Shown: one piece after another, positions 38,750 to 63,702 of the stretch | Numbering within the stretch: position 1 is the first letter of the stretch | Layout of the letters: the number at the start of each line of letters is the position of its first letter | Source of the DNA: Candidatus Nomurabacteria bacterium | GTDB lineage: Bacteria; Patescibacteriota; Minisyncoccia; Phycocordibacterales; UBA918 | DNA length: 64,000 nt | NCBI GenBank assembly: GCA_023898525.1 | Contig: CP060227.1 | Coordinates: 173,634-237,633, forward strand | Direction: 5' to 3' | Position numbers and translations under genes: made by a program | Notes under the pieces: generated by a model | The model's database searches: none | The model's input: only the letters and a program-made list of their open reading frames with translations | What the model was told of the DNA's origin: nothing

Positions 38750-39825
38750 TGAATAATCTCACATACATATGAGACTCCTTAAATAAGGAGTAATGAGAAT
38801 ACATAACATTTTAAGGAACACCAGAGGGTTTGCCAAAGCGGCTGATAGTGCTCTAAAGTGGCAGACAATGAAAAACAAACAGGAGGTCGAAAGAAGAGTT
38901 AAAATACTCACGTTTTGGCAAAAACATGGTACTAATACCACCAAAGATGCTTTTGGCGTATCTAGACCAACTTTATTTAGATGGCAAAAAGAACTAAATG
39001 ATAGTAATGGTAATATCCAAGCCCTAGACCCCAAGAGTACTGCTCCTAAGAAACGAAGAGTGAGACAGATATCACCACCACTAGAGCAAGCTATTATCAA
39101 CTGGCGTACTAAGCGACCACGGATTGGTGGGAAAAAGCTGGTACCGCTATTGAAGAAGGAAGGATTCAAGGTGTCAGTTTCCTATGTTAATCGCTGTATC
39201 AGTGATCTTAAAGAACTAGGTAGACTACCGAATCCAGTTAAGCTCTCTTGGTACGCTAAGAGTGGTACACACAAAGAACAAAGAAAAACCAAGGTTAAAA
39301 AACAAAGAAGACCACAAAAACAAGGTTTGGAGATAGACACTATCGTGAGACACATAGATGGCACTAAACGGTACATACTCACCGCCATAGACATAGAAAG
39401 ACGGTTTGCTTACGCTCGTACTTATACCAGTCATTCTTCAAATAGTGCTCGAGACTTTCTAAAACAACTTATACACTATACCCCTTTTAGTATAGATGAG
39501 ATACAGACTGATAATGGTTCAGAATTCGCTAAATACTTCCACGAAGCTTGTTTAACTCTTAACATCAACCATTATCACACTTATCCACGTTGTCCTAAGA
39601 TGAATGCCTATATAGAGCGATTCAATCGTACCGTTCAAGAAGAACACATTATTTATCACCGATCCCTGCTTCGAGATAGTATTCCTGACTTCAATGATTC
39701 ACTGAATGAATGGTTGTATTGGTATAACCATGAGAGACCGCATGAAGGACTGGGTCTTTTGTCGCCCATGGAGTATTATAGAGAACATTATGAGATAGAG
39801 TCTCAAAGGTGGTGAGATCGTACAA
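38750..39825 (+). mobile_element. IS481-family insertion sequence, copy 1 (1076 bp), inserted 7 bp downstream of the tRNA-Asn 3' end
   Basis: 100% identical over 1076 bp (compared directly in sequence) to 62627..63702; imperfect terminal IRs around TGAATAATCTCAC / GGTGAGATCGTACAA; possible 5-bp flanking repeat AAATC. Confidence 0.8.
38793..39815 (+). CDS. IS481-family DDE transposase (HTH + rve integrase core)
   Basis: DDE triad context: IDTIVRHIDG..., TDNGSEFAKYF, NAYIERFNRTVQEE; YNHERPHEGLG; 340 aa single ORF. Confidence 0.85.
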   Translation: MRIHNILRNTRGFAKAADSALKWQTMKNKQEVERRVKILTFWQKHGTNTTKDAFGVSRPTLFRWQKELNDSNGNIQALDPKSTAPKKRRVRQISPPLEQAIINWRTKRPRIGGKKLVPLLKKEGFKVSVSYVNRCISDLKELGRLPNPVKLSWYAKSGTHKEQRKTKVKKQRRPQKQGLEIDTIVRHIDGTKRYILTAIDIERRFAYARTYTSHSSNSARDFLKQLIHYTPFSIDEIQTDNGSEFAKYFHEACLTLNINHYHTYPRCPKMNAYIERFNRTVQEEHIIYHRSLLRDSIPDFNDSLNEWLYWYNHERPHEGLGLLSPMEYYREHYEIESQRW

Positions 39826-39898
39826 ATCATTGACACTTTACCCAAAAAAATGTATAATTTACAAAGATTTCAAACAACCAGATAGGAGATTATTTATG

Positions 39899-40210
39899 TC
39901 TGAAGTAACTTTTAACTGCCGTATTGTAATTGCTGACGGTCACCCATATGTTGTATACGCTCGCTCAGGAAATCACTACCATTCGTTCACTGCTCGGTAT
40001 GCAGTCAGTATAGATATGAAGAACAATAAATGTACTGTAAGTGAAATAGCCCTACAGATGGCACAACAGGCGCCCGAGGAGTTACCTTTAAGCAGACTGG
40101 TTCAAAATTTTGTCTACAGCTTCTCAGCAACCTCTTTTTCTTGTGATGAAAAAAGTGGGTGGCAAGAACTATTTGAAAAGCATGACAAATCTAAAGTAGT
40201 TACTGAATAA
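39899..40210 (+). CDS. hypothetical protein (about 103 aa from MSEVTFNCRI)
   Basis: ORF followed by hairpin CTCGTGGTG...CACCACGAG plus T-run (40265..40310). Confidence 0.3.
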   Translation, partial: SEVTFNCRIVIADGHPYVVYARSGNHYHSFTARYAVSIDMKNNKCTVSEIALQMAQQAPEELPLSRLVQNFVYSFSATSFSCDEKSGWQELFEKHDKSKVVTE

Positions 40211-40321
40211 TCTGAGCAAGTTGATGTTCAATTAAGATAAACCTATATGTTTTATAATAGCTCACTCGTGGTGTAACTAGTAATAGTTTTCACCACGAGT
40301 TTTTGTTTTATATTGATATCA

Positions 40322-40352
40322 ACAAGTTCGAACATCCTCCACCCAGCGGAGC
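40322..40352 (+). repeat. 31-bp direct repeat, copy 1 (ACAAGTTCGAACATCCTCCACCCAGCGGAGC)
   Basis: identical to 41061..41091. Confidence 0.8.
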
Positions 40353-40432
40353 TAGACAGATTAAGTTTTTTATGATTTAATACAGATTGATGTAGCGTTT
40401 TAAATTTCAGACACTCGTGAGGAGAACCAAAA

Positions 40433-40996
40433 ATGGCAATAACTGAAACCGATTACATTAAAAAGGTACCGCTTCAAAAAATTCATGCACTCATGACTAG
40501 ACAGGACATGAATATTGGGTATATGTTACTTATGGGTAAATGGGCTGATTCAGCACTAACATGCGAAGAACATCCTTTTGGTTTAGATTTACCCGCATAC
40601 GAGAACGATAGTTGTGGTCCTTATAAAAATAGACAAGTAAGATTTATACCAAGAACAGATGCTGATGCGGAAATCAACACGTTAATCGCCCATCTTAATT
40701 GGACCCTAGATGGTAGTAGTACAGTTTCGCGCTTGCGTGTCATATACGCAGAATGCAATGAAAACAATCCTAATGAACATTCCGTCTATGTGGAAATATG
40801 GACCAATGCAGGAGTACTCATGGCTGGCGGCTCTGATTGTGACATTGAAGGTGGTATAGCAGCCTCTAATCTCCTGGGTATAGTGCACTTACTTAAATTA
40901 CTATACGTGACAGAAATTGAAACAATTGAGATACCCTATTGTATAGCAAAAGTACATAGTGACAATTTTCACAATAAGTATAGATACCTCATTTAA
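40433..40996 (+). CDS. hypothetical protein (187 aa) bracketed by the 31-bp direct repeats
   Basis: ORF with no recognisable motif. Confidence 0.35.
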   Translation: MAITETDYIKKVPLQKIHALMTRQDMNIGYMLLMGKWADSALTCEEHPFGLDLPAYENDSCGPYKNRQVRFIPRTDADAEINTLIAHLNWTLDGSSTVSRLRVIYAECNENNPNEHSVYVEIWTNAGVLMAGGSDCDIEGGIAASNLLGIVHLLKLLYVTEIETIEIPYCIAKVHSDNFHNKYRYLI

Positions 40997-41060
40997 CATT
41001 TAAATTCTGTTCTCAACATACTACCCTCAGCAATAGCTGTAGGGTAGCTTTTTATATAAT

Positions 41061-41091
41061 ACAAGTTCGAACATCCTCCACCCAGCGGAGC
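41061..41091 (+). repeat. 31-bp direct repeat, copy 2; its 3' end is part of a strong hairpin
   Basis: identical to 40322..40352. Confidence 0.8.
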
Positions 41092-41119
41092 ACAAAATCC
41101 CCTTTCGGGGATTTTGTGC
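41090..41119. terminator. hairpin GCACAAAATCCCC-TTTC-GGGGATTTTGTGC
   Basis: perfect 13-bp stem; lies between the convergent 40433..40996 (+) and 41156..41473 (-) genes. Confidence 0.5.
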
Positions 41120-41155
41120 TCACGTCTTATCCTAAGATAATCAATGACAAAGTTC

Positions 41156-41473
41156 TTATAGACCCATTTCTTGTACAGCGTGTACACCAACACTTCCTCC
41201 TAGAGTTAATGATGGTGAACCTTTTGCTATTTCTACCGCAGCGTCCATATCGTCTGCGTTTACCACCAGATATCCACCAACCTCAGCTTGATAATCGGAA
41301 ACTGACATGTCGGTACCAATTATATCCTTTCCTTTTTCCTCAAAAGGTCCCATACTATCTAAAATACCCTTTCCTCTTAGATCATCTACCCAAGTCTTCC
41401 ATTGATCCATAATTTCCTCTCGATTTGAATCATCGGGACTGCCGCCCTTGATTAACAATATAAATTTTTGCAT
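41156..41473 (-). CDS. YciI-like (DGPF domain) protein
   Basis: MQKFILLIKGG...W..W...L...G.L....GPFEEKG...DY.AEVGGYLVVNADDMDAAVEIAKGSP matches the YciI-like pattern; 105 aa. Confidence 0.5.
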   Translation of the reverse strand: MQKFILLIKGGSPDDSNREEIMDQWKTWVDDLRGKGILDSMGPFEEKGKDIIGTDMSVSDYQAEVGGYLVVNADDMDAAVEIAKGSPSLTLGGSVGVHAVQEMGL

Positions 41474-41567
41474 AGTTATTATTTTTCTTATCTAGCAATT
41501 ATTTAATTCTAACAGATAAGATGAGGGTATCCTACTTCAGCTTAAGATTATTACACCAATCACCTAA

Positions 41568-42446
41568 CTACCGTATACCCGTGTCACACGACAAATCAAC
41601 GTCTAGCATTGTGTCCGGCGTCACAGTAATATCAACCGTGCCACAACTTGGAAATGGACTTCCGCCGACTGGCTGAAGTGTGTAATTTCCAGGTGGAAGC
41701 ATTGCTTTATAAACTCCAGTTTTATCAGTATTTATTATCGAAAATGGCGCATTACTATGACTGCCAATTGCGTAGACTTCTACAGTTGTAGGGTACGGTT
41801 TGTCGGCACACCCAGGATCTGGCGGTTCACGCATGACCGGACAGGTCGGACCAAGTAATACCCTACCCGATACACCTGAATCAAATGGTAATATACCTCC
41901 TCCGCCACTCATAACCACATCGTCATCCACATCAGCAATACCCTCGTCCTCAGCACCATCTTCATCACCATTGATTTCTTTTATATCTTTTCCCTCTCCC
42001 TCCCTCTCCTCATTTTGTGTTAATACTGCGAGTAGAGTTGCGACATCAGATTCACTCTTTACCTCTACCTCTAACCGCTTTGAGAGATTGGCAAGGAGCG
42101 TTCTGTAGCCTTCACTAGATATAGTCTGTTCAGCTGAAGTCACTGGTTGACCAGCGGTTCTTTGGTATGTAAGTTCATTTCCATCGAAGTGATACACGCC
42201 TTCAAGGGTTTTTACTCCACCAAAATCCGACGGCACAAGGTCCGGAAATATCTGCATAAAAATAAACGCGCTAAAACCCTCTATCGGGTGTCCACCACGT
42301 TCAACCCCGGCTTGTATGATCTCTGACTGAAAGAGTTCGCTATATTGATTTAATTCGTACCCAGGAACTTCTTTAGTTAGCTGCCAAAAAATACCAATTC
42401 CAAGCACAATGACCATAACCATCATTGGTGACAAATATTTCTTCAT
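41568..42446 (-). CDS. membrane-anchored secreted hypothetical protein with acidic linker and C-terminal beta-rich (carboxypeptidase-regulatory-like?) domain
   Basis: N-terminal TM helix; GDEDGAEDEGIADVDDD linker; C-terminal GVYKAMLPPGNYTLQPVGGS. Confidence 0.3.
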   Translation of the reverse strand: MKKYLSPMMVMVIVLGIGIFWQLTKEVPGYELNQYSELFQSEIIQAGVERGGHPIEGFSAFIFMQIFPDLVPSDFGGVKTLEGVYHFDGNELTYQRTAGQPVTSAEQTISSEGYRTLLANLSKRLEVEVKSESDVATLLAVLTQNEEREGEGKDIKEINGDEDGAEDEGIADVDDDVVMSGGGGILPFDSGVSGRVLLGPTCPVMREPPDPGCADKPYPTTVEVYAIGSHSNAPFSIINTDKTGVYKAMLPPGNYTLQPVGGSPFPSCGTVDITVTPDTMLDVDLSCDTGIR

Positions 42447-42511
42447 GTACTTATTTTACCCCAAACCCTAACTAACTTGAAGCTGGTTAGGTAAGACTAT
42501 ACCTATCAACC

Positions 42512-43072
42512 CTAAGACGCAGCTTGTAGTTTTAACAGTTTTTGTAGTTGCTGAAGTAGGTCGAGGAGTTGCAAAAGCTGTTTAATTTTTGCTTCCAATT
42601 CTTCCCGAGTCGGCTGTACCATACCCTGCTTATCATTGCTATTAACACTAGTCACAACTGGCGCGACCGGGTTCTTTAAACACGATATCCAAGGTGTAGT
42701 ACTTTGCTTGTCATAAACATATTTGGCGTAGGCGAGATTATCCTCAAGAGTATTAATATCAAAACCAAGTTTTTTAGCAGTATTTAGATGAATAGATTCA
42801 TTAAACTGAAATACCCCGATCATCTGACCACCTGAGCCGCCCCGCAAAACAGCGCCGCTGTTGGTGTATTGACGGAAGTTTGATTCACAACGAGCAATCT
42901 CAATCATATCTGGAATGTCCACGAAATACTCTCGAACTTTTTTCTCTGTCTCAACCTGATTACGATAATCCGAGACTCCAGCTGTGAGTGGTGTTTCAGC
43001 GTAGGCTGAGCTAGACACACCAAAAGCTACCAACAAGAAGGTAGATAGAAATATTATAGATTGTATTTTCAT
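42512..43072 (-). CDS. secreted protein with lysozyme-like/transglycosylase (Rpf/SLT-like) domain
   Basis: signal peptide; IEIARCESNFRQY...GQMIGVFQFNESIHLNTAKKLG resembles the CES...G..Q..W core of Rpf-type transglycosylases; weak. Confidence 0.3.
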   Translation of the reverse strand: MKIQSIIFLSTFLLVAFGVSSSAYAETPLTAGVSDYRNQVETEKKVREYFVDIPDMIEIARCESNFRQYTNSGAVLRGGSGGQMIGVFQFNESIHLNTAKKLGFDINTLEDNLAYAKYVYDKQSTTPWISCLKNPVAPVVTSVNSNDKQGMVQPTREELEAKIKQLLQLLDLLQQLQKLLKLQAAS

Positions 43073-43156
43073 AGTTGGATATTATATCACCAAAACCTCT
43101 CAACCTGCACCCGTCAAACTTTTTTATTTTACCCCAACACTGCTATAATCCAAGCT

Positions 43157-43579
43157 ATGGAAATTCCAGTTTTTAGTATCATATCGCTTATTACCGAAAT
43201 ATTGGTCACAGTATCAGTTTTAGTCATTATCTATAAAGCCTATTACACCGGTGTTTTTATGCGGGGTTTTGCTTTCTTTGTTCTTGGCTACGAGATCATG
43301 TTCAATATCTCATATATGCTTTCTCGAGTACTACACCACCTACCAGAACACCACGACTCACACCACGAACCTTTTGAGCTTGGACTCGCTATTTTTCACG
43401 GCACCTTTTCCTTGATAATGTTTATTGGTCTAGTTATTTTCTTTCTTATGGCTGCCAAAAAATACGCCACTGGTGAAAATTACTTTGCTAAACACCCCCG
43501 CTTCACTTCCCTCTTTATCGCCGCTTGGCTGGTATCGGTATTTTCTGGAATGCTATTCTTTTATCTTTTGTATGTTTAA
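43157..43579 (+). CDS. polytopic membrane protein (about 140 aa)
   Basis: four hydrophobic helices; start taken at MEIPVFSII to avoid overlap with the convergent upstream gene. Confidence 0.3.
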   Translation: MEIPVFSIISLITEILVTVSVLVIIYKAYYTGVFMRGFAFFVLGYEIMFNISYMLSRVLHHLPEHHDSHHEPFELGLAIFHGTFSLIMFIGLVIFFLMAAKKYATGENYFAKHPRFTSLFIAAWLVSVFSGMLFFYLLYV

Positions 43580-43604
43580 TATCTTATTTTTTTAACTATA
43601 GAGT

Positions 43605-43862
43605 ATGGAAGTATTTTTTAGCGTAGCTCCAACATTATTTAACTTTATTGGAACAATTGTTATTGCCTGGGGTCTTTTGATCACAAAAGAAAAAGCTTTA
43701 GAATTAGGCATATCTCGCTGGTCAAGTGATGATGAAGAAGAAAATCTTAAACTTCCAGCCATAAGCGACAGAATTAAACAAAGGAATTTTGCAATCGTAG
43801 GATTAATACTATTAACTATTGGTTTGATTATAGAATTAATCGGTACACTTTGTTACAAGTGA
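43605..43862 (+). CDS. small membrane protein (85 aa, 2 TM)
   Basis: ORF only. Confidence 0.25.
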   Translation: MEVFFSVAPTLFNFIGTIVIAWGLLITKEKALELGISRWSSDDEEENLKLPAISDRIKQRNFAIVGLILLTIGLIIELIGTLCYK

Positions 43863-43874
43863 TATACTTACTCC

Positions 43875-44615
43875 ATGAAAAAGGTTTTGGTTTATGGGGT
43901 TTTACCAATAGCTGTATTTTTGATAGTGCTTTATGTATTAGCTTCTTTTACACATACTGGGCGGGTGTGGTCTTTGTATTTTTTGGCGGCGCCGAAGGCG
44001 CCGCTCGCTGTGAAATACGATTGTATCAAAGAGACCAACCAAAAAGTGTACGATAAGTTTCTATTACCACTGGAATTTGATGAAGTATCCAAAAACGACT
44101 TACGAGAGTATTGGCACTTTAGCTATTATCGTGCCTGCCTTTTTAAAGCCGGCTATGACTTTTGGGGTAATGAAATACCACCAACCTCTCTACTACAAAA
44201 AGACAGTCACACAGAATATACCAACTACTTTGCAGACATATCTCTAACTCTCCCCCCTCAAACTAAACTGGCTTTAGACAATGAAGTAAATCCCGACCAT
44301 GATGATTATATTATCGCCTCTATCCTAGAACTAGATGGAAATGAAATTTATATAAATGTTGACCGAAGCTACAAGCCTGCCAATATGGCGACACTGAAAA
44401 ATGAGTTCGCCGGCTTTCAAAGCCAAAAAGATTTTAAGAGCCCTGACTTAGTTTTCCAAAGTGAAACAAAAGAAAACGTAGCTGCTTTTAGTGACGGTAA
44501 ATTATATGGCTACGTAGTACTAATACCAAACCGACATATTGTAAAAATATATACAGACAAAGATGGGTCAGAAACACTAGACCAGATTATGACTACATTT
44601 AAAACTATTGAATAA
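43875..44615 (+). CDS. membrane-anchored hypothetical protein (246 aa)
   Basis: N-terminal TM helix, no motif. Confidence 0.3.
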   Translation: MKKVLVYGVLPIAVFLIVLYVLASFTHTGRVWSLYFLAAPKAPLAVKYDCIKETNQKVYDKFLLPLEFDEVSKNDLREYWHFSYYRACLFKAGYDFWGNEIPPTSLLQKDSHTEYTNYFADISLTLPPQTKLALDNEVNPDHDDYIIASILELDGNEIYINVDRSYKPANMATLKNEFAGFQSQKDFKSPDLVFQSETKENVAAFSDGKLYGYVVLIPNRHIVKIYTDKDGSETLDQIMTTFKTIE

Positions 44616-44693
44616 AAGAACTGCTAATATAAAATAACCGAGGAACGACCTTTTCCGTCGCAAGCTCCTCCTCAATTTCGCACCTCGGTTATT

Positions 44694-45029
44694 TTAATCG
44701 TCATCATCTTCCTCCTCCCACTCGTCATCCTCGTATTCTTCATCATCTTCCCACTCGTCATCTTCCTCATATTCTTCGTCTTCATATAAACCATTAAAAA
44801 CACTATCATCCACTGGATTAGAAGAAATATCAGCAGAAGTCGGTATTGGAATCGTTTCCAATTCTTCCGGCAACGGGTCAACTTGCTCTATTTCAACACT
44901 AGCGGTAGTGTCATGTATTTCTTTGTTGGCGTTTTTCTTTTTTTCGGCATAACTAGCAAAACCATACGCTAAAATTGCTGTTGCCCCAATCCAGAATACT
45001 ATCAAACTAAGTACAAAAGTCTTTTTCAT
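44694..45029 (-). CDS. membrane-anchored protein with extremely acidic Glu/Asp/Tyr/Trp-rich C-terminus
   Basis: N-terminus MKKTFVLSLIVFWIGATAIL nearly identical in style to the next gene; C-terminal EDEEYEEDDEWEDDEEYEDDEWEEEDDDD. Confidence 0.3.
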   Translation of the reverse strand: MKKTFVLSLIVFWIGATAILAYGFASYAEKKKNANKEIHDTTASVEIEQVDPLPEELETIPIPTSADISSNPVDDSVFNGLYEDEEYEEDDEWEDDEEYEDDEWEEEDDDD

Positions 45030-45039
45030 AATTTATATT

Positions 45040-45900
45040 TTAAGCAGCTACACCGACATAATATTTACTAAGTAATTGGTAAGAACTGGACTTATGCCTA
45101 TGTCCACCGGAAGTTGTACCATTAAATAGTTTAGTCGCATCAATACCACAGTTATTGATAATCCTACTCTTACCACCCGGATGATACGGTATATAGTCAG
45201 TTACATCATACACCTTTCCATCAATCGTCATCCAGCAGTCGGTCGAGCTGTTGTGCTTGGCGACAGTAGCGGCGCTAATCCCCGAAGAGGTCTTGGTGGT
45301 GTTTGTGGTGGTGTTGGTAGTATTAGTTGTATTTGTATTGGTAGTAGTCTTGGTGGTGTTTGTGGTTTGAGTTTTAGTATTGGTTGTACCTGAAGTTGAT
45401 TTAACCTCAACCTTAGGTTTGAAACTAAGATCATTAGTTAAATAATTCTCTACCGACCACCCTCTCGTTCCATCGTCATACGATATTCTGTACCACCAAT
45501 AACCATCAGCAGCTACCGGATCTACCAATACTCTCCCAATGGTACCTGGTAACACTGTACCTACTACCCCTGCTTCAATGGAAGGCTCCTTACGAACCTT
45601 TAAACTTTCCATTGCCATTAAAGTATCAAGATCAGTATATTTGGCCGAATCACTTAGTGTATTATCGCCATTAGATTTTTCTTTATCGCCACCAAATATA
45701 CCTTTGGTAATCTCAGATAAAAAACCATTCCCCTCTTCAGAAACACCTTCTGTATCTTCCACCCTTTCAAGCGAATTCATATCTGAAGACATCAGGCCAA
45801 CCTCCGGCGCAGTATTATCATAAACCACAAAAGCCGCCGCCAAGAGAGCAGTAACCACTGACCAAAAGATTGCAACAAAGATAACGAAAGTTTTTTTCAT
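45040..45900 (-). CDS. membrane-anchored SH3b-like domain / poly-Thr-Asn linker / cytochrome b5-like haem-binding domain protein
   Basis: SH3b-like VRKEPSIEAGVVGTVLPGTIGRV...WWYRISYDDGTRGW; TTNTTKTTTNTNTTNTTNTT linker; b5-like HNSSTDCWMTIDGKVYDVTDYIPYHPGG. Confidence 0.5.
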   Translation of the reverse strand: MKKTFVIFVAIFWSVVTALLAAAFVVYDNTAPEVGLMSSDMNSLERVEDTEGVSEEGNGFLSEITKGIFGGDKEKSNGDNTLSDSAKYTDLDTLMAMESLKVRKEPSIEAGVVGTVLPGTIGRVLVDPVAADGYWWYRISYDDGTRGWSVENYLTNDLSFKPKVEVKSTSGTTNTKTQTTNTTKTTTNTNTTNTTNTTTNTTKTSSGISAATVAKHNSSTDCWMTIDGKVYDVTDYIPYHPGGKSRIINNCGIDATKLFNGTTSGGHRHKSSSYQLLSKYYVGVAA

Positions 45901-45917
45901 AATAAATACATTCTACC

Positions 45918-47234
45918 CTACAAGAGCTTAAATTCTTCGGTATGAATCAAGCGACGCGGTACCCCAGCGGCAGTAAATTGCTTAATTAAACCCTGCATCA
46001 TTGGCGGCGGACCACAGACGAATATGTCAGTGTTGGAAAGGTCACCACTGGTACTCTTTATGACGTCCGCTGACAAAAAACCTTTCTCATCTGATTGATG
46101 AGGAATAATACTAATATTAGAATTTTCTTCACTAATAGCCTTAAGTTCATTATAAAAAACCATTTCATCCTCTGTTTTGGTCGCATAATAAAAATCAATT
46201 ACCAAGTCATCACGTTGATTTACCCTTAAGTTGCGTGCCATGTTAAGAAACGGAGTAATACCAATACCACCTGCTATCCAGATTTGACGCCCGCACTTGC
46301 CTTTAAGATAAGAAAAGCCACCAAACGGACCCTCAATCCTCGCGGTTGCTCCCGCGTTTAAGTACTTAAGTTGACCAGTCCAGTCACCAAGCGCTTTTAC
46401 AGAGATGCGCAAATATTTCTCTGTAGGTGCCGAACTAATCGAAAATGGATGCACTTCTTTGGTCATACCACCATCCACAAAACTAATAAAAATAAATTGT
46501 CCGGGCACATAATGCATTACTTCATTTTCTGGACGCATAACTACCTCAATAATACCTTCCCCTAAATCATTGACCGCTTCAACTATATACGTATATCTTT
46601 TCTTAAACGCATGACCGAGCAGAGTATGATAAATATAAGCAGCAATAGCTAAAGCAGCCAGACTAAAAATATATACTTTAAGCCAAGGATTGATTGACAC
46701 ATCGCTCGGAATCAAAAAAGCATGCAAAGCGCCAAGAAAAAAAGCCCCACCCAAAATCTGATGGGCAAATCGTAAGTACTGATAACGCCACTTGGCGAAG
46801 AAAGTAATAACGAGAAGCGACATCATAAGTAAAAGTCCTAGGATACCGAAGTTTACCGCCCAGTCACCACCAGGAATAAGTAGCTTAGCGGCTTCAACTA
46901 CAGATATAGGCACGAGTGCCACGGCCAGAGCCAATGGGTGCACTAAGATAAAAAGAAAAGCAATCGTCCCAGAATAGTGATGTATCCGATAAACCCGATC
47001 CAGACTCCCAAAGTATTCCTCAAGAAAATGCAATCTGGCACTAAGGATAATTGTAAGAGAAAAAAGTGTAATACCGACAAGAGCAGTTAATTGCCCAACA
47101 CTGGTGAGAGCGGAAAATGAGTCACCAAATCGCATAGACAACGGCATCATGGTGAGCCACATAAACATAGGCAATAAAGTCGCCAAAATAACAACTGTCA
47201 ATCCAACCCGATTTTTAAATATCCTTTGTGGCAT
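45918..47234 (-). CDS. ferric reductase/NOX-like flavocytochrome (6-TM di-haem domain fused to FAD- and NAD(P)H-binding FNR-like domains)
   Basis: His pairs in TM helices (HHYSGTIAFLFILVHP; HQILGGAFFLGALHAF), HPFSISSAP (FAD-binding HPF motif), AGGIGITPF (NAD-binding GGxGxxP). Confidence 0.6.
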   Translation of the reverse strand: MPQRIFKNRVGLTVVILATLLPMFMWLTMMPLSMRFGDSFSALTSVGQLTALVGITLFSLTIILSARLHFLEEYFGSLDRVYRIHHYSGTIAFLFILVHPLALAVALVPISVVEAAKLLIPGGDWAVNFGILGLLLMMSLLVITFFAKWRYQYLRFAHQILGGAFFLGALHAFLIPSDVSINPWLKVYIFSLAALAIAAYIYHTLLGHAFKKRYTYIVEAVNDLGEGIIEVVMRPENEVMHYVPGQFIFISFVDGGMTKEVHPFSISSAPTEKYLRISVKALGDWTGQLKYLNAGATARIEGPFGGFSYLKGKCGRQIWIAGGIGITPFLNMARNLRVNQRDDLVIDFYYATKTEDEMVFYNELKAISEENSNISIIPHQSDEKGFLSADVIKSTSGDLSNTDIFVCGPPPMMQGLIKQFTAAGVPRRLIHTEEFKLL

Positions 47235-55619: not shown

Positions 55620-55629
55620 AACTCGCAAC

Positions 55630-55662: not shown

Positions 55663-55705
55663 TATGTTATATTTATTACGTTATTTATATAAAAGCTAAA
55701 TATCT

Positions 55706-55914: not shown

Positions 55915-55950
55915 TAAAACCCCTCAAAATTGAGGGGTTTATTATTTTTA
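55915..55950. terminator. bidirectional terminator AAACCCCTCAAAATTGAGGGGTTT + AT-rich run
   Basis: hairpin between convergent genes. Confidence 0.6.
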
Positions 55951-56568
55951 TTTTATCCTCTCATACTTACCCATCAAAACAGCACTTTCTATCGCTGACT
56001 CTTTGGCTATTACCTCTACCTCATCAAGGGTTGGGACTTTAATAAAATTCACAATATCAGGCAATGCATAAAGTCGGAAAAAGTACCGGTGCTCACGATC
56101 TGGCGGACAAGAACCAACGTACCCGACCTCACCACGCGAAGATAAGCCTTCACTACCAACCATCTCTCCTTCCTTAATCACGGTTGTATCTGGCGGAATA
56201 TTGTACAACACCCAATGATCAAACTTCTCTATTCCCCGACTTTCCTTCACACTATCCGGAATATCTGGATCATCCATCACTAGAACCAACGATTTTGTAC
56301 CCTCTGGAACACCAGAAATGTGTAACTCAGGATTTACATTTTCACCATCACAGGTGTATCTTGCCGGAATTGACCCACCATCAGCAAAAGCTGGTGAAGT
56401 TAAAGTGAGTGCCATAGTTGTCTCATTGTTATCACTATTAATTTGACTCTTATCTTCACCCAAGCCACCATCAATCGCAACTGGTGCATGAACTGGCTTA
56501 TATAAAAGATAAGAACCGACCAAAACAACCACTAACGTGAAAATAAAAATTTTATGCAGGTTGTTCAT
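55948..56568 (-). CDS. YbhB/YbcL-family PEBP (Raf kinase inhibitor-like) protein with N-terminal signal/anchor
   Basis: ADGGSIPARYTCDGENVNP, DHWVLYNIP, HRYFFRLYAL (PEBP motifs); start moved to MNNLHKIFIF to avoid overlap with the MATE promoter region. Confidence 0.7.
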   Translation of the reverse strand: MNNLHKIFIFTLVVVLVGSYLLYKPVHAPVAIDGGLGEDKSQINSDNNETTMALTLTSPAFADGGSIPARYTCDGENVNPELHISGVPEGTKSLVLVMDDPDIPDSVKESRGIEKFDHWVLYNIPPDTTVIKEGEMVGSEGLSSRGEVGYVGSCPPDREHRYFFRLYALPDIVNFIKVPTLDEVEVIAKESAIESAVLMGKYERIK

Positions 56569-56639
56569 ATTTGAATATTTTATCACTGTCATACTACCAG
56601 TACCAGATAAATATAACGAATAATGTATACTTAAAAAAC

Positions 56640-57986
56640 ATGACAAATACCGAACACCGTTCACTGACCAATGAACCAGTACCAATACTGCTTCGTTCTA
56701 TCGCTGTGCCTGCTTCTATTGGTTTCTTCTTTAATACCATGTATAACGTCGTGGACAGTTGGGTAGCAGGTCAAATTTCCGGAGAAGCTTTAGCAGCACT
56801 CTCTGTTACCTTTCCTGTCTTCTTTATAATCATCGCCTTGGCCATTGGTATCGGTACCGGTGTAACCGCTCTTATCGCCAACGAGCTGGGCGCTCAAAAA
56901 ACCGAAAAAGCCAAGCTATACGCCACCCAAACCATTTCCTTTGGTCTTATCACTTCTATCATCATAACCATTGCCGGTTACCTGGCCGCTCCAACTTTAT
57001 TTAAATTTCTAGGTGCCTCTGACTCATACCTTACGGCCACCCTAGCCTATATGCAGCCAATTTTCCTTGGCTCAATTTTCATTGCCATGGTAATTATCCT
57101 AAACGGTATTCTTAACGCCGTTGGAAATACTAAATCGTACCGCAACGTGCTTGTTGCAGGTTTTTTCTTAAATGTTCTTCTTAGTCCAACCTTAGCCCTC
57201 GGTTGGTTTGGTCTGCCAACCCTAGGTATCTTGGGTATCGCTGTCGCGACCCTCATCAGTAATTTGCTCGGGCTTATCTATATTAGTTACAAAGTTTGGC
57301 AGACCAAATTAATTGACCGAGAATGCCTCAGTTGCTACCTAAAACCAAACAAAAAGATTTACGCGGACATAATGTCACAAGGTTTACCAGCCAGTTTAAA
57401 TATGATGACGGTGGCTATCGGCGCCTTTATTATTACTTATTTTGTCAGTCAATACGGTAAAGAGGCGGTGGCCGGTTACGGAACCGCTATTCGTGTTGAA
57501 CAAATGGTTCTTATTCCTAGTATGGGTATAAATATGGCTGTGTTAGCCCTGATAGGACAAAATAACGGCGCTAAAAGACACGACCGTATTACAGAAATTG
57601 CCGCTGTCGGAATAAGGTATATTTTAATCCTGGGAACCATTGGCACCACCATCCTCTTCTTTGCAGCTGCTCCACTCATGAAACTCTTTACAGAGGAGCC
57701 AGATATAATTGGCTTTGGAGTTGGATACTTAGCTGTCGCGGCCTTTATCACTTGGGCATACGGAATAATATTTGTGACAGAAGCCATTTTGCGCGGGCTT
57801 AAAAAACCAATCTTCCCTTTGATTTTAGGAGTAGTTAGACAGACTATAGTGCCATTAACTGCTTTTTATTTAGTGACTTTCGTTTTCACCTTAAGTATCG
57901 TTGGGCTATGGTGGAGTATTTTTATCATCGTTTGGTCATCGGCTTTGATCTCACTTTGGTACACCAGGCGACAAATGAGTCTGTAA
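56640..57986 (+). CDS. MATE-family multidrug/oligosaccharidyl-lipid efflux transporter
   Basis: 12 TM helices; N-terminal PILLRSIAVPASIGFFFNTMYNVVDSWVAGQISGEALAAL typical MATE TM1; start taken at MTNTEHRS. Confidence 0.7.
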   Translation: MTNTEHRSLTNEPVPILLRSIAVPASIGFFFNTMYNVVDSWVAGQISGEALAALSVTFPVFFIIIALAIGIGTGVTALIANELGAQKTEKAKLYATQTISFGLITSIIITIAGYLAAPTLFKFLGASDSYLTATLAYMQPIFLGSIFIAMVIILNGILNAVGNTKSYRNVLVAGFFLNVLLSPTLALGWFGLPTLGILGIAVATLISNLLGLIYISYKVWQTKLIDRECLSCYLKPNKKIYADIMSQGLPASLNMMTVAIGAFIITYFVSQYGKEAVAGYGTAIRVEQMVLIPSMGINMAVLALIGQNNGAKRHDRITEIAAVGIRYILILGTIGTTILFFAAAPLMKLFTEEPDIIGFGVGYLAVAAFITWAYGIIFVTEAILRGLKKPIFPLILGVVRQTIVPLTAFYLVTFVFTLSIVGLWWSIFIIVWSSALISLWYTRRQMSL

Positions 57987-58079
57987 CCAGCTCCTCTTAG
58001 GAACACCCCCACAATTAAATAGGACATATAATACCGCGTCTAGTCTTTTTAATTTGTGCAGATGTAATATGATTCATAT

Positions 58080-59081
58080 ATGACCAGACGCCAACATAAA
58101 AAAGATAAAACCTACATCATTTTGAGAATAATGGCTATTTTGATTTTTCTACTCTTAATTACAATCATAGCCACCATTGAAGTAAATAAAGTAGACTTTA
58201 AAGCAAACCAACCAATCACAATTGACCCTGTAAATATAGACTACAAACACGAAACTGCCCCAAGTAGCCCTTTTCTACACTCTGAAGAAGCAGTCATCGT
58301 GGAGGTCGGCACATCTACCGAGAAAGAGGTTATACCAATTGATAAAGTTTTATTTGAATATGTAGAAGTGACAAACGGTTGCGGACCACATTTTGAAGGC
58401 GACTGTCTAAATGTCCGCAGCGGCCCCGGTCTTGATTATCCGGTTGTAGCCCAACTTAGAAACGGCATTGTTCTAAAAGTTGGTGGTAAGGTGGAGAGAG
58501 ACGATGAAACTTGGTTTAAAATTATTTTTGACGAATGGCTCCGCTACCCAGAACGAATAAAAGATGATTGGTATATATCTGCTGATTATGTAGAGGTTTT
58601 ATTAGACGAGGGAGATAAAACTGTTTGGGATAAAAAAGACACCGACGCCAAAACCGCGTCAAGCACTATCGCTTCAGACCAAAGTCAATCAACGACCACA
58701 CCAATTAAGAAAATCATTGTCGATCGTTCCGAACAAAAACTCTACGCATACGAGGATGAAGATATCTTTATGGAAATTGATATATCGACCGGGCTAGAAT
58801 TAACACCCACTCCACGCGGTGAATTTACCATCTTCAAAAAAACACCGAGCCGGTATATGCAAGGACCATTACCAAACCTAATTGATCAACAATACTACGA
58901 TCTGCCAGGAGTACCCTGGAACCTCTATTTCACTCATGGCGGAGCCGTTATCCATGGAGCCTATTGGCACAATAGCTTTGGCCATCCATACTCACACGGC
59001 TGCGTAAACGTTGAACCAAACAATGCCAGAAAATTATATAATTGGGCAGACTTAGGAACCAAAGTAATCGTTCGAGACTAG
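58080..59081 (+). CDS. L,D-transpeptidase (YkuD catalytic domain) with SH3b-like N-terminal domain
   Basis: catalytic HGGAVIHGAYWHNSFGHPYSHGCVNV (His...Cys motif of YkuD); TM anchor; SH3b-like NVRSGPGLDYPVVAQLRNGIVLKV. Confidence 0.75.
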   Translation: MTRRQHKKDKTYIILRIMAILIFLLLITIIATIEVNKVDFKANQPITIDPVNIDYKHETAPSSPFLHSEEAVIVEVGTSTEKEVIPIDKVLFEYVEVTNGCGPHFEGDCLNVRSGPGLDYPVVAQLRNGIVLKVGGKVERDDETWFKIIFDEWLRYPERIKDDWYISADYVEVLLDEGDKTVWDKKDTDAKTASSTIASDQSQSTTTPIKKIIVDRSEQKLYAYEDEDIFMEIDISTGLELTPTPRGEFTIFKKTPSRYMQGPLPNLIDQQYYDLPGVPWNLYFTHGGAVIHGAYWHNSFGHPYSHGCVNVEPNNARKLYNWADLGTKVIVRD

Positions 59082-59133
59082 ACCATAAAAAACGTTTTGT
59101 GTCATATTGACCTTATTGTATAATTTCTAGACT

Positions 59134-59961
59134 TTGAAATCATTTAAAGTTATTTCTACTTTATCTATATTGACCGTTGTCGGAGCGACCTACGGTCTAC
59201 TAGAAACTACTCAAGCCTCTCCCTCCCCTCTACCCAATGAAGACCAAAGTCAAAATATATATCCAAGGATAGTTCAGGTTGCATCCGCTAGCGAACTTGA
59301 ATCAAAATCCCCTGAATCAAACCAGACCGACTCAATTAAAAAAACAGAAAAGGTCGAAGATAAAAACTATATTGCAAAAAAAGAAAAACAGACCGAGAAG
59401 ACCAAACTAGCCACAGCCAGTAAAGATAATCTGATCAAGACCAACAAAACCAGCCAAACAAAAGATAATTTTTTTGTTCCTTTCTACTCTCAGTTTCAGG
59501 ACATCTCTGACCCCAGTTGGAAAAAAGTCGGCTGTGGCATTGCCAGCCTGGCCATGCTTATAGAACTATATGAACCAGGAAAAGTTTCGGTCGATAGCTT
59601 ACTTCAAGAAGGTATTGAGGGCGGAGCATACCTAAACGACGCCGGCTGGATACACAGCGGTCTTATTAGCTTAGCCCGGGATTATGGACTTAATGGATCA
59701 ACCAACGACTTGTCAGGTTTGGGTACCGAAAAAGCCTTTTCAAAACTAAAAGAAGCTTTAAATGAAGGACCTGTCATGGCCTCAGTCCATTACACTTTTG
59801 ACCCGAAAAATCCAATTCCCCATTTAGTAGTAATAAACGGAGTTGACGGCAACACCGTCTACTATAACGACCCATCAGAAAAAACCGGTGGTGGCACCAT
59901 CACTTCGGAAAAATTCATCAAAGCTTGGAAAAAAAGATATATAGAAATCAGACCTGTTTAG
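59134..59961 (+). CDS. secreted C39-like (papain-fold) peptidase domain protein
   Basis: signal peptide; KVGCGIASLAMLIELYEP (catalytic Cys context of Peptidase_C39_2), downstream His (VHYTFD...PHLVVINGVD). Confidence 0.5.
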   Translation: MKSFKVISTLSILTVVGATYGLLETTQASPSPLPNEDQSQNIYPRIVQVASASELESKSPESNQTDSIKKTEKVEDKNYIAKKEKQTEKTKLATASKDNLIKTNKTSQTKDNFFVPFYSQFQDISDPSWKKVGCGIASLAMLIELYEPGKVSVDSLLQEGIEGGAYLNDAGWIHSGLISLARDYGLNGSTNDLSGLGTEKAFSKLKEALNEGPVMASVHYTFDPKNPIPHLVVINGVDGNTVYYNDPSEKTGGGTITSEKFIKAWKKRYIEIRPV

Positions 59962-60010: not shown

Positions 60011-60293
60011 GCAGAAGTTTTTCCGGACACAAGACCGTAACCCAAACCGCCATTAAGGGGTTATGCTACACCCAAATGTACCCAATTGTACCTTAAGCAG
60101 TCCTGGTACGCCTCTGCAACTTGCCACTCAATGCTATTTTGCTTCGGAGGTGAATGTCCCCCCAAATAATCTTTTATCGCATATATCCTCCTCAACTACA
60201 ATGCAATATTTGTAGTTGAAGCAATATAACACATGTTCTTGCTTTCGTCAATACATCTATCCTGAATTCTCACCCTAATTGCACAATCCTTTG

Positions 60294-61290
60294 CACCCTA
60301 ATTGCACAGGTCAAGATGACATACATACTGCTTTTGTATGTCACACAAACAAATAGGACCGGAAGACTGGCCGGTTATTTCACGTATGCTCAAAGCGGGA
60401 TACTCAGGAGTGGAGATTGCGCACATTATCAACAAAGATCCAAGTGCGGTTAATAGACATATTAAAGCGTATGGTGGTCGGGATAGATACGATGCTCGCG
60501 AGGTTCGCAGAAAGAAAAAACAGGCACGTATCATTGCTATGGAAGGTACTAGAATACTCAAAGGAGTATTATTACGAGAAGTGAAACGATTATTAAAACA
60601 ACACTACTCACCGGAACAGATAGTCGGAGTACGTGATGACATCTCTGCGAGCACTATCTACCGATACATTAACGAACGAGCTCCACACCTTAAACAATTT
60701 CTTCGTTCTCAGAAAGGCAAGTATCGGCGCAAACGAGGCACCAAAATACGTGAAAAAGTTCGTGAAAGAGCCAAGAAACGTCGTATTGATGAACGACCGC
60801 CCATTATTGAACGTCGCTCCCGTTTGGGAGATTGGGAGGGAGATACTATGCTGGGAAGAGACAAACGAGTACGTATTGTCACCTTCGTTGATCGCAGAAG
60901 CGGGTATCTAATTGCGTATCTTCTGCCAAAATTAAATGCTACTTTACTCACTAAACTGGCGGTGGAAAAATTCAGGCGTATACCCAAAAACAAACGAAAG
61001 ACCGCTACCTTTGATAACGGTACCGAGTTCAGTGACTGGGAACGGTTTGAGAAACAAACGAGTATGACTGTGTACTTTGCTTATCCATACCACTCTTGGG
61101 AGCGTGGTACCAATGAAAATACTAACGGGCTACTTCGACAATATTTTCCGAAAGACTTGGATTTCAACACCATTACTCCACAAGAACTTTCTGAAGCGGT
61201 TCGTCGTATAAATCATCGTCCTAGAAAGAGACATAATTTCAAGTCTCCACATCAGATATTTTGGAAGTGATGGTCTGTGCAATTAGGGTG
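60294..61290 (+). mobile_element. IS30-family insertion sequence (997 bp) with 16-bp perfect terminal inverted repeats CACCCTAATTGCACAG; an extra 15/16 copy of the left IR lies at 60271..60285
   Basis: IR at 60294..60309 equals the reverse complement of 61275..61290; contains a single IS30-type transposase ORF. Confidence 0.75.
60338..61270 (+). CDS. IS30-family DDE transposase
   Basis: N-terminal HTH; DWEGDTM (first Asp), FDNGTEF (second Asp), ENTNGLLRQYFPK (Glu), INHRPRK; 310 aa. Confidence 0.85.
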   Translation: MSHKQIGPEDWPVISRMLKAGYSGVEIAHIINKDPSAVNRHIKAYGGRDRYDAREVRRKKKQARIIAMEGTRILKGVLLREVKRLLKQHYSPEQIVGVRDDISASTIYRYINERAPHLKQFLRSQKGKYRRKRGTKIREKVRERAKKRRIDERPPIIERRSRLGDWEGDTMLGRDKRVRIVTFVDRRSGYLIAYLLPKLNATLLTKLAVEKFRRIPKNKRKTATFDNGTEFSDWERFEKQTSMTVYFAYPYHSWERGTNENTNGLLRQYFPKDLDFNTITPQELSEAVRRINHRPRKRHNFKSPHQIFWK

Positions 61291-61317
61291 GTGATTCAAG
61301 TATGTTTGAACCCTTAA

Positions 61318-61360
61318 CCAAAACACACAAACCCTACTTTAAAGTAGGGTTTGTGTGTTC
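61318..61360. terminator. hairpin AACACACAAACCCTACTTT-AAAGTAGGGTTTGTGTGTT between the IS30 right end and the bactofilin-like gene
   Basis: 18-bp stem; no clear U-tract. Confidence 0.4.
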
Positions 61361-61376
61361 ATAAGAAATTAACTTG

Positions 61377-62525
61377 CTAACGCTCTAACCAAAACTTCTT
61401 TTGCATCACATTCACTATAGTTCCCACCGTTATTAAGAATACTAGGAAAGTAATTATCCAACCCACAATCGGTATCAAACTAACCAAGGTGAGCAACAAA
61501 ACTCCGATCACAACTTTGAACCAAGTTATAGTGATCTGCCCGTTTCCAATTAATTTTAGAAGCCATACCCCAGCCAAAACACCGGCATAAATACCAGAAA
61601 GCATTAAAAGTAAAATGTAGGCTAAAATAGTTAAGATTCCTAGCGGCAAGCCAAATATAGTTACAAATAGGAGCACGATAACCACTGGTACAATAACCAC
61701 CGCCACGAATCCCTTACCAAGCTTAGCTAGCGGGTCAGCTATCGCATCTTGAACCACTGTTTCAGAAAAGCGCCTAAATAACCAAACCAGGATCAATGCT
61801 GCCACAATAGTAGTGATCAATTTGAAAACAAACAAAGCTCCCAGCAAAGCTGCGATCACATTCTCAGCATCGGGTTTTTGTGGCCTTTCAACCATTTTGA
61901 ATACAGTTTCGCCTTCCACCACCGCTGCCTCATCTTTCTTTAAAATATTTTCACTCCGCCCCGCATAACCTAGACCACTATTTATAACAGCGGTTTCGCC
62001 CAGAGTTAAGCTGTCAGTTACCTCAGCTTCCACTTTCCCCGACACTTGTCCATTAATAGTCGCCACTCCGCCGTTTATCCTTACGTTACCAAGCACATTT
62101 CCGTCTAATGTCACCTGACCACCAACCAGAATTAGGTCTTTATTGACTGTCACATCAGACGAAACCAGGACCGATCCACCCATCACGATCAACTCGCCAC
62201 CTACGTCACCGGTTAGTAAAATATTTCCACCCGCCACTCTCACATCGCCACCTACGTCACCGAGTACGGTCACCGAGCCACCAACCAGAGCAATATCGTC
62301 AGAAACCTTACCAGTAACTAAAACATTGCCACCAGCCGCGAATAAATCACCAGCGATATCAGCTGCTAGCGTAACATTACCTCCCGCTACATAGAGATTG
62401 TCATTTACCTCAACCCCTTTTTTGATTGACACCTCTTCACCGGCCTGTATGGTAGCCGCCAAAGATACTGTTGGCACCAAAACAACAGCCATTGCCATCA
62501 AAATAATTTTGTTTATTTTTTTCAT
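61377..62525 (-). CDS. bactofilin-like (polymer-forming cytoskeletal repeat) secreted domain fused to a C-terminal 4-5 TM domain
   Basis: signal peptide; repeated GGNVxLxGDVxGDLxxxGG beta-helix repeats (GGNVTLAADIAGDLFAAGGNVLVTGKVSDDIALVGGSVTVLGDVGGDVRVAGGNILLTGDVGG...); hydrophobic C-terminal third. Confidence 0.5.
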   Translation of the reverse strand: MKKINKIILMAMAVVLVPTVSLAATIQAGEEVSIKKGVEVNDNLYVAGGNVTLAADIAGDLFAAGGNVLVTGKVSDDIALVGGSVTVLGDVGGDVRVAGGNILLTGDVGGELIVMGGSVLVSSDVTVNKDLILVGGQVTLDGNVLGNVRINGGVATINGQVSGKVEAEVTDSLTLGETAVINSGLGYAGRSENILKKDEAAVVEGETVFKMVERPQKPDAENVIAALLGALFVFKLITTIVAALILVWLFRRFSETVVQDAIADPLAKLGKGFVAVVIVPVVIVLLFVTIFGLPLGILTILAYILLLMLSGIYAGVLAGVWLLKLIGNGQITITWFKVVIGVLLLTLVSLIPIVGWIITFLVFLITVGTIVNVMQKKFWLER

Positions 62526-62626
62526 ATTAAGAATTATGAATTGTTCAATAAAACTACCCTCTTTATTTAATATGGTACTCCTATTATGGTCTTTTTACCA
62601 GAACAAACGCACTTTCTTCATAGCTT

Positions 62627-63702
62627 TGAATAATCTCACATACATATGAGACTCCTTAAATAAGGAGTAATGAGAATACATAACATTTTAAGGAACACCA
62701 GAGGGTTTGCCAAAGCGGCTGATAGTGCTCTAAAGTGGCAGACAATGAAAAACAAACAGGAGGTCGAAAGAAGAGTTAAAATACTCACGTTTTGGCAAAA
62801 ACATGGTACTAATACCACCAAAGATGCTTTTGGCGTATCTAGACCAACTTTATTTAGATGGCAAAAAGAACTAAATGATAGTAATGGTAATATCCAAGCC
62901 CTAGACCCCAAGAGTACTGCTCCTAAGAAACGAAGAGTGAGACAGATATCACCACCACTAGAGCAAGCTATTATCAACTGGCGTACTAAGCGACCACGGA
63001 TTGGTGGGAAAAAGCTGGTACCGCTATTGAAGAAGGAAGGATTCAAGGTGTCAGTTTCCTATGTTAATCGCTGTATCAGTGATCTTAAAGAACTAGGTAG
63101 ACTACCGAATCCAGTTAAGCTCTCTTGGTACGCTAAGAGTGGTACACACAAAGAACAAAGAAAAACCAAGGTTAAAAAACAAAGAAGACCACAAAAACAA
63201 GGTTTGGAGATAGACACTATCGTGAGACACATAGATGGCACTAAACGGTACATACTCACCGCCATAGACATAGAAAGACGGTTTGCTTACGCTCGTACTT
63301 ATACCAGTCATTCTTCAAATAGTGCTCGAGACTTTCTAAAACAACTTATACACTATACCCCTTTTAGTATAGATGAGATACAGACTGATAATGGTTCAGA
63401 ATTCGCTAAATACTTCCACGAAGCTTGTTTAACTCTTAACATCAACCATTATCACACTTATCCACGTTGTCCTAAGATGAATGCCTATATAGAGCGATTC
63501 AATCGTACCGTTCAAGAAGAACACATTATTTATCACCGATCCCTGCTTCGAGATAGTATTCCTGACTTCAATGATTCACTGAATGAATGGTTGTATTGGT
63601 ATAACCATGAGAGACCGCATGAAGGACTGGGTCTTTTGTCGCCCATGGAGTATTATAGAGAACATTATGAGATAGAGTCTCAAAGGTGGTGAGATCGTAC
63701 AA
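62627..63702 (+). mobile_element. IS481-family insertion sequence, copy 2 (identical to copy 1, same orientation)
   Basis: 1076 bp identical to 38750..39825 by direct comparison; flanks differ; possible short flanking repeat AGCTT/GCTT. Confidence 0.8.
62670..63692 (+). CDS. IS481-family DDE transposase (identical to 38793..39815)
   Basis: identical 340-aa translation. Confidence 0.85.
   Translation: MRIHNILRNTRGFAKAADSALKWQTMKNKQEVERRVKILTFWQKHGTNTTKDAFGVSRPTLFRWQKELNDSNGNIQALDPKSTAPKKRRVRQISPPLEQAIINWRTKRPRIGGKKLVPLLKKEGFKVSVSYVNRCISDLKELGRLPNPVKLSWYAKSGTHKEQRKTKVKKQRRPQKQGLEIDTIVRHIDGTKRYILTAIDIERRFAYARTYTSHSSNSARDFLKQLIHYTPFSIDEIQTDNGSEFAKYFHEACLTLNINHYHTYPRCPKMNAYIERFNRTVQEEHIIYHRSLLRDSIPDFNDSLNEWLYWYNHERPHEGLGLLSPMEYYREHYEIESQRW

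Follow-up and report, generated by a model that had tools for sequence, protein, structure and literature searches.

Two identical IS481-like insertion sequences beside tRNA-Asn in a Nomurabacteria chromosome: probable separate insertions upstream of -35 boxes

When two identical insertion sequences (IS) stand in the same orientation on either side of a set of unrelated genes, did they carry these genes along as one unit, or did they arrive one by one in DNA that was already there? This question is raised by a 64,000-nucleotide stretch of contig CP060227.1 of a Candidatus Nomurabacteria bacterium (positions 173,634 to 237,633 of the forward strand; hereafter the window), in which two copies of an IS481-like element enclose 22.8 kb of DNA next to a tRNA-Asn gene. 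A first-pass annotation of the window had proposed a composite transposon or an IS-bounded genomic island anchored at the tRNA. Our results indicate that the two copies very probably entered resident DNA separately, each as a simple insertion upstream of a -35 box, and belong to one active, multi-copy IS481-like element. What we observed directly comprises the identity of the copies, their boundaries, target-site duplications and copy number, the synteny and composition of the DNA between them, and the adjacency of the -35 hexamers.

Direct comparison of the two segments, together with a domain search, bore out the first description of the pair. Positions 38750-39825 and 62627-63702 are exactly 1076 identical bases in direct orientation, and each encodes the same single, intact open reading frame (ORF) of 340 aa with the domains HTH_32, rve and rve_3 and no frameshift. 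The identity ends abruptly at each side, with none beyond either end, and no further IS481-like copy, full or partial, is present in the window. Alignment of five genomic copies gave a true element length of 1075 bp, from TGAATAATCTCAC to GTGAGATCGTACA (Table 1). The 1076th matching base is the first base of the flank, which is A at both sites by coincidence; the same flank base accounts for the '1 mismatch' rows in the five-copy comparison. The termini are imperfect inverted repeats of ~28 nt, which agree in 20 of the first 29 positions and have TG...CA ends. The ends read TGA...ACA here and TGC...ACA in some relatives.

The assignment to the IS481 family, made at first pass, holds as a best match but not as a certified membership. 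Among the IS families of NCBIfam, the transposase matched IS481 best (NF033577, 185.7 bits, below the curated cutoff of 224), followed at a distance by IS3 (108). Likewise, the best annotated tblastn matches on the plasmids of PLSDB were IS481/ISKpn28 transposases, with 35-38% aa identity. Because the NCBIfam score falls under the curated cutoff, we label the element only as IS481-like. It resembles the IS481 family in its DDE transposase (a single ORF with an rve core behind an N-terminal HTH), its length of ~1 kb, its terminal inverted repeats ending in ...ACA and its short target duplication. It differs in its host, a bacterium of the Candidate Phyla Radiation (CPR). The target sequence of IS481 itself is NCTAGN, whereas a TTGACA-like hexamer is found here. 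Members of the IS481 family have TGT...ACA ends and target duplications of 2-15 bp, mostly 6 bp (PMC10045372), in contrast to the TGA or TGC left end and the 5-bp duplication of this element.

The assembly GCA_020632175.1, a metagenome-assembled genome of the Paceibacteria/Nomurabacteria type within the CPR, holds at least five copies of this IS with identical transposases. Three are located on JACKGB010000003.1 (including the two of the window), and one each on contigs 4 and 6. The three copies outside the window, on contigs 3, 4 and 6, all have housekeeping surroundings; they are found upstream of alaS, upstream of a 132-aa ORF followed by an S1-domain gene, and upstream of small ORFs. All five copies are 100% identical over 1075 bp, which supports the earlier suggestion that they probably transposed recently.

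Each copy is framed by its own target-site duplication. Short flanking repeats had been seen before as AAATC at copy 1 and AGCTT/GCTT at copy 2, with a doubt of 1 nt about their register; the five-copy alignment settles them as AATC and AGCTT. The other three genomic copies have the duplications AACCC, TTATC and TATAT, and hence the duplication measures 5 bp in four of the five copies and 4 bp at copy 1. The outer flanks of the 22.8-kb pair are unlike, with AAATC on the left and AGCTT on the right. An own duplication at each copy, combined with unlike outer flanks, is the signature of two simple insertions without later recombination between them.

These flanks bear directly on the composite transposon, according to which the two IS copies moved the 22.8 kb as one unit to its place beside tRNA-Asn. 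Two identical, intact copies in direct orientation around accessory-looking genes are what this explanation calls for, and the locus shares with composite transposons of the Tn10/Tn5 type the presence of unrelated genes between two copies of one IS. Yet here a common outer duplication is lacking, and each IS has one of its own (AATC/AATC and AGCTT/AGCTT). Moreover, part of the enclosed DNA is conserved chromosome continuous with that outside, since the right third is collinear with sequence beyond copy 2 in a relative without the IS. Its composition is not distinct, and each of the two sites is explained by the -35 preference of the family. A joint move of the 22.8 kb is therefore highly improbable.

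Might the pair instead be an assembly artefact, in which one collapsed IS consensus was placed twice, so that either the identity or the placement is not real? Repeat polishing can produce base-identical copies such as the five found here, and short-read contigs of this IS family usually break at the IS ends. However, both junctions of copy 2 are present in independent Logan short-read contigs of run SRR12358676: L011 contains DUF8173 followed by 29 nt of the IS, while L014 contains 28 nt of the IS followed by the 175-aa gene and fpg. The placement of copy 2 is thus not an artefact of a single assembly. In addition, each copy has its own matching target duplication, and unique sequence flanks both copies on either side. 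We consider an artefact very improbable. Scans for the right end of the IS gave no matches in the genome contigs and a single one in the metagenome contigs (L012), a chance match without similarity to the window. A scan of viral contigs with the transposase found no match either.

Synteny with relatives argues against an island bounded by the two copies. The nearest relative that we found, GCA_041389025.1 (Fpg 78% and Fmt 71% aa identity with the window), has the gene order PBP(-)-MatE-YkuD-C39-(two unrelated ORFs)-Fpg-UDG, and contains neither the IS481-like element nor the IS30 element at this locus. In a blastn comparison, it was collinear with positions 55970-59960 and again with 64396-66049 (extended coordinates, since Fpg-UDG lies past the window end). 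As PBP-MatE-YkuD-C39 is collinear with Fpg-UDG in a relative without the IS, conserved chromosome spans the site of copy 2. A 697-aa ORF of this relative was tested as a homologue of DUF8173 and proved not homologous. Across 80 Paceibacteria loci, Fmt-HPF-Grx is found near varying subsets and orders of tRNA-Asn, PBP, Fpg, YkuD, C39 and UDG. The right third of the block is part of this old neighbourhood, because its genes recur near Fmt-HPF-Grx in relatives. Annotation confirmed the gene content that had been listed between the copies. Its description as accessory DNA applies at most to the left ~16 kb (39.9-55.9 kb), which alone looks lineage-specific and is not bounded by copy 2; PBP-MatE-YkuD-C39 is conserved chromosome.

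A comparison of the block with positions 1-37000, which had been suggested as a check, likewise revealed no distinct composition. The GC content was 0.408 in the 22.8-kb block and 0.421 in 1-37000. The tetranucleotide L1 distance between the two was 0.092, slightly under the range of 0.101-0.131 obtained for same-sized chunks of 1-37000, and hence the block lies no further off than resident DNA does. Both sub-blocks were within their tetranucleotide null ranges as well, and the GC skew had the same sign throughout. Furthermore, we calculated that five random copies in ~1.09 Mb have a chance of ~37% of including at least one pair within 24 kb. The genome size was taken from a record of 1,087,875 bp in which Fpg, NirK and the transposase have identical sequences. 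An IS pair 24 kb apart by chance is an ordinary situation.

What the two sites have in common is a promoter. At copy 1, a consensus sigma-70-type promoter (positions 39830-39858) that serves a 104-aa gene at 39896-40210 follows the right end of the IS; at copy 2, the -35 hexamer of a 175-aa gene does so (Table 1). The right duplication is directly followed by TTGACA in four of the five genomic copies. We extended this comparison to five related elements whose transposases have 71-75% aa identity and whose flanks were taken from Logan and ENA contigs. Together with the copies of this IS, they gave 14 distinct sites, drawn from loci L001-L005 and L097-L122. At these sites, GTACA and 5 further nt are followed by T (14 sites), T (12), G (13), A (9), C (10) and A (10). 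TTGACA is exact at 7 of the 14 sites, and 10 match it in at least five of the six positions. At most of the sites, a -10-like hexamer follows 16-17 nt further on (mean of 4.7 out of 6 matches). At random intergenic positions of the window, the probability of an exact TTGACA is 2.5e-4, which gives a binomial p of ~1e-22.

The orientation is equally uniform. The transposase gene points toward the promoter at every site. The downstream gene is on the same strand in all five copies of this genome and in the relatives where a downstream gene was called; in the contigs of two relatives (L097 and L107), the closest ORF called runs on the other strand. Taken together, the flanking sequences point to an orientation-specific insertion just upstream of putative sigma-70 promoters. 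We considered whether TTGACA might be part of the IS itself, and rejected this: the 5 nt that separate the hexamer from the IS end differ from copy to copy, and in each copy they match its left flank. Mimicry of the inverted repeats was considered too, but the similarity of TTGACA to TGAATA/TGCATA of the left inverted repeat (IRL) is too weak to argue either way.

The same promoters offer an explanation for the nearness of copy 1 to the tRNA gene. In relative L017, the homologous site is empty, with GGAGCAAATC directly followed by TTGACG-N17-TACTAT. As this empty site carries promoter-like sequence, the position of copy 1 beside the tRNA is a by-product of the promoter located there. The first-pass annotation correctly placed the start of copy 1 at 7 bp past the 3' end of tRNA-Asn, which is at 38743 in a gene that proved to be split by an intron; its inference of a tRNA-anchored island is not supported, as the targeted consensus promoter explains the adjacency, and as neither an integrase among the ORFs of at least 95 aa nor a distal copy of the tRNA 3' end was found.

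One explanation of the promoter association might be selection only, where insertion is random and the survivors are those that spared genes and promoters in a compact genome. Coding is dense, with ~6.2 kb of intergenic DNA in 64 kb, and surviving insertions are therefore expected to be intergenic. However, mere tolerance of intergenic positions would scatter the distances, whereas the sites share an exact phase (T at +6 in 14 of 14, G at +8 in 13 of 14), the same side and the same orientation. Selection as the only cause is improbable. Because the phase is exact across sites, it argues for target choice by the transposition machinery over selection alone, with purifying selection as an additional contribution.

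For insertion of the two copies upstream of resident promoters, we propose the following course of events. Each copy would have arrived by ordinary cut- or copy-and-paste transposition with a staggered target cut of 5 bp (once 4 bp), directly upstream of a promoter -35 and with the transposase gene oriented as the downstream gene. Copy 1 would have entered at the promoter of the 104-aa gene, by chance 6 nt after tRNA-Asn, and copy 2 at that of the 175-aa gene that precedes fpg. The direct orientation of the copies would follow from the location of both target promoters on the + strand. The 22.8 kb between them would then be resident chromosome rather than cargo, consisting of the ~16-kb variable region and the conserved PBP-MatE-YkuD-C39 block that runs into Fpg-UDG. 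The insertions would presumably be near-neutral, with the promoter left intact, and the copies are probably recent.

We give even chances to a broader proposal. It holds that the IS481-like clade, which is widespread in Paceibacteria/CPR metagenomes, consists of promoter-targeting IS that insert in one orientation with their right end exactly 5 bp upstream of TTGACA, and whose transposition machinery itself would recognize the TTGACA-like hexamer or promoter-bound RNA polymerase. At E <= 1e-30, the transposase has 4,031 homologues. Our literature search found no description of -35 or promoter targeting by IS elements, which is not proof of novelty. The closest known parallel to the insertion geometry is the targeting of XerCD sites by the ISAba32 group. 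In this subgroup of the IS481-related IS1202 family, elements insert directionally, with one defined end 5 bp away from XerCD sites and with a 5-bp duplication; its authors discuss a 'safe haven' rationale and protein-directed targeting (bioRxiv 10.1101/2022.12.17.520857). What the two systems share is a spacing of exactly 5 bp between a defined IS end and a particular short host sequence, along with a 5-bp duplication and a fixed orientation. They differ in the end that faces the target, which is the transposase-proximal end (IRL) at xrs/dif in the ISAba32 subgroup and the transposase-distal end (the right inverted repeat, IRR) at the -35 hexamer here. They also differ in the target and, judged by the size of the present element, probably in the transposase. 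By analogy with Ty3, the element would be a bacterial counterpart of promoter-directed integration.

Several observations weigh against two separate, promoter-directed insertions. The copy upstream of alaS, one of the five, abuts TCGCAA instead of TTGACA, and the duplication of copy 1 is 4 bp rather than 5 bp. The flank comparison covers only 14 sites, several of which are on short contigs from Logan or ENA. Part of the promoter association stems from selection against insertions within genes, an effect that is inseparable from target recognition on the present data. The perfect identity of the copies could partly stem from consensus polishing of the long-read assembly. The nearest relative in the comparison belongs to a different species (Fpg 78% aa identity). 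Finally, the flanks are mismatched, without a shared duplication, in the short contigs L006, L106 and L113/L114, and L118 lacks a matching duplication as well. The mismatched flanks of L006, L106 and L113/L114 reflect either chimeric assembly via the repeat or IS-mediated recombination in natural populations. L006, a Logan contig of run SRR30635583, combines the right flank of the contig-4 copy with a different left flank.

Table 1. Features at and around the two IS481-like copies, in window coordinates.
Feature	Position	Strand	Details
tRNA-Asn(GTT) exon 1	38066..38099	+	accepted by ARAGORN when joined with exon 2
Group I intron, 606 nt	38100..38705	+	Rfam RF00028, 69 bits, E = 2e-15, gathering score 50
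HNH endonuclease ORF in group I intron	38137-38457		PHROG HNH endonuclease families, E = 2.6e-28
tRNA-Asn exon 2	38706..38743	+	last tRNA base 38743
Left target-site duplication of copy 1, AATC	38746..38749	.	repeated at 39825-39828
IS481-like element, copy 1	38750..39824	+	1075 bp; transposase ORF 38793-39815
Consensus sigma-70-type promoter, TTGACA-N17-TATAAT	39830..39858	+	12/12 consensus match; starts 5 nt after IS right end
Lineage-specific variable region	39896..55906	.	small hypothetical/secreted proteins, YCII, Cyt-b5/ferric-reductase-like/NirK, 1126-aa/582-aa/WHH operon
31-nt direct repeat	40322..40352	+	second copy 41061-41091; pair flanks 187-aa ORF
NirK, ferric-reductase-like flavocytochrome, secreted SH3 + cytochrome-b5 protein	45040-48829	-	adjoining genes
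Operon of 1126-aa and 582-aa proteins, then WHH/colicin-DNase nuclease	48948-54944	-	no family for first two
Conserved syntenic block PBP(-), MatE, YkuD/SH3, C39-like peptidase	55948..59961	.	68-76% nt identity, collinear with L016 (GCA_041389025.1)
IS30-family element, 1036 bp, 23-nt inverted repeats	60263..61298	+	310-aa transposase ORF 60338-61270
Left target-site duplication of copy 2, AGCTT	62622..62626	.	repeated at 63702-63706
IS481-like element, copy 2	62627..63701	+	transposase ORF 62670-63692
TTGACA -35 hexamer of 175-aa gene	63707..63712	+	5 nt after copy-2 right end; weaker -10 (TAACTT) 17 nt on

Although the IS copies do not bound an island, the left ~16 kb might have a history of its own. 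Apart from weak, scattered matches (24-55% identity) to a 186-aa protein and to the ferric-reductase-like protein in 8 of 80 related genomes, its genes are missing near tRNA-Asn/Fmt in these genomes; the contig of the nearest relative stops 880 bp past the tRNA. The NirK protein is a copper nitrite reductase (TIGR02376, 320.8 bits, above the cutoff). Its homologues, with 70-78% identity, are common in Nomurabacteria/Paceibacteria in differing gene contexts. Two relatives have NirK in other surroundings, and homologues with 72-78% identity stand among unrelated genes. Of the operon that follows, PHROGs gave the 582-aa protein a weak match of the phage tape-measure type, and no immunity gene was identified for the WHH nuclease operon. 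The 1126-aa/582-aa/WHH operon may be a polymorphic toxin or delivery module.

Short repeats are present in this region as well. The 31-nt direct repeats are perfect and end in GCGGAGC, which resembles the tRNA 3' end. In L017 (12866-12893 and 13441-13497), a near-identical 31-nt motif is located downstream of tRNA-Asn, and a second copy of the genuine tRNA-Asn 3' end follows ~160 bp after the first. Both tRNA-like ends of L017 are followed by a repeated module with a hairpin terminator (CGAGTAAAAAACTACCAGAC...), at which the contig breaks. The 31-nt repeats and the duplications in L017 may be att remnants of small integrating cassettes.

These features raise the possibility that the left ~16 kb integrated site-specifically at the tRNA-Asn 3' end, perhaps stepwise, and that the IS copies came later and are unrelated to it. 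Such an origin would be compatible with separate IS insertions. It would fit the lack of these genes near tRNA-Asn in the 80 relatives (bar the weak matches to two), the other contexts of NirK in two relatives, the 31-nt repeats around the 187-aa ORF with their likeness to the tRNA 3' end, and the duplicated tRNA-Asn end and recurring 31-nt motif of L017. Like tRNA-linked genomic islands, the locus has a variable gene set directly downstream of a tRNA, with short repeats nearby that resemble the tRNA 3' end. It differs from them in several respects. No integrase or recombinase was found among the scanned ORFs of at least 95 aa between 38.7 and 62.6 kb, a scan that left out a 111-aa ORF at 44694-45029 and did not cover smaller ORFs exhaustively. 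In a fuzzy search of the window, the tRNA-Asn 3' end had no second, distal copy; the sole similarity was GCGGAGC in the pair of 31-nt repeats. GC and tetranucleotide composition do not depart from the range of the genome itself, and copy 2, which had been proposed as the right boundary, is surrounded by conserved synteny. Synteny is generally loose here, so that absence from distant relatives is weak evidence. A prophage origin of the region was also considered and dropped, as PHROGs gave no signal beyond the tape-measure-like match. On balance, we regard site-specific integration of the left ~16 kb as plausible but less likely than not.

The tRNA-Asn gene itself escaped detection by ARAGORN in the intact window because a group I intron interrupts it. 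When 38066-38099 and 38706-38743 were joined manually, ARAGORN recognized a canonical 72-nt tRNA-Asn(GTT). The intron interrupts the anticodon loop and separates positions 35 and 36 of the anticodon; the last base of the 5' exon is T, and that of the intron is G. This intron is shared by the nearest relative, whose HNH endonuclease is 96% identical in aa sequence, as compared to 69-85% for neighbouring genes. In other Paceibacteria, tRNA-Asn either lacks an intron or has shorter introns without an ORF, of 232 and 268 nt (L023 and L070, respectively). The sequences suggest that the intron may be mobile. It further contains a perfect 52-nt palindrome (38571-38622), located in an insertion relative to the Rfam model, which could be an extended peripheral stem of the intron.

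On the other side of the enclosed segment, between the conserved block and copy 2, the IS30-family element is assigned by its transposase (NCBIfam IS30, 240.6 bits versus a cutoff of 80). No clear target duplication was seen at 60263-61298. Its left terminus, TGAATTCTCAC, resembles the left terminus TGAATAATCTCAC of the IS481-like element.

For the annotation of this chromosome, the results imply that conserved chromosome would be mistaken for mobile cargo if the IS pair were called a composite transposon or taken as the limits of an island. The pair may nevertheless have consequences of its own. It had been suggested that the direct repeats allow deletion or inversion of the block; deletion is possible in principle, but repeats in direct orientation lead to deletion or duplication, not to inversion. 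Because of them, the 23.9-kb interval may be polymorphic for deletion within the population, and a deletion between the copies is predicted to leave a junction in which ...GGAGCAAATC, a single IS and AGCTTTTGACAAG follow each other.

The part of the finding that could matter most widely is the promoter-proximal target rule. If true, an IS that always lands 5 bp ahead of a -35 hexamer and faces the same way as the gene would bring a new kind of target choice to the DDE transposases. Such a rule would account for the spread of an IS through the tiny, gene-dense genome of a CPR bacterium without the inactivation of genes. Where culture is impossible, the insertions would also serve as computational markers of promoters, and they could inspire a tool for promoter-directed integration.

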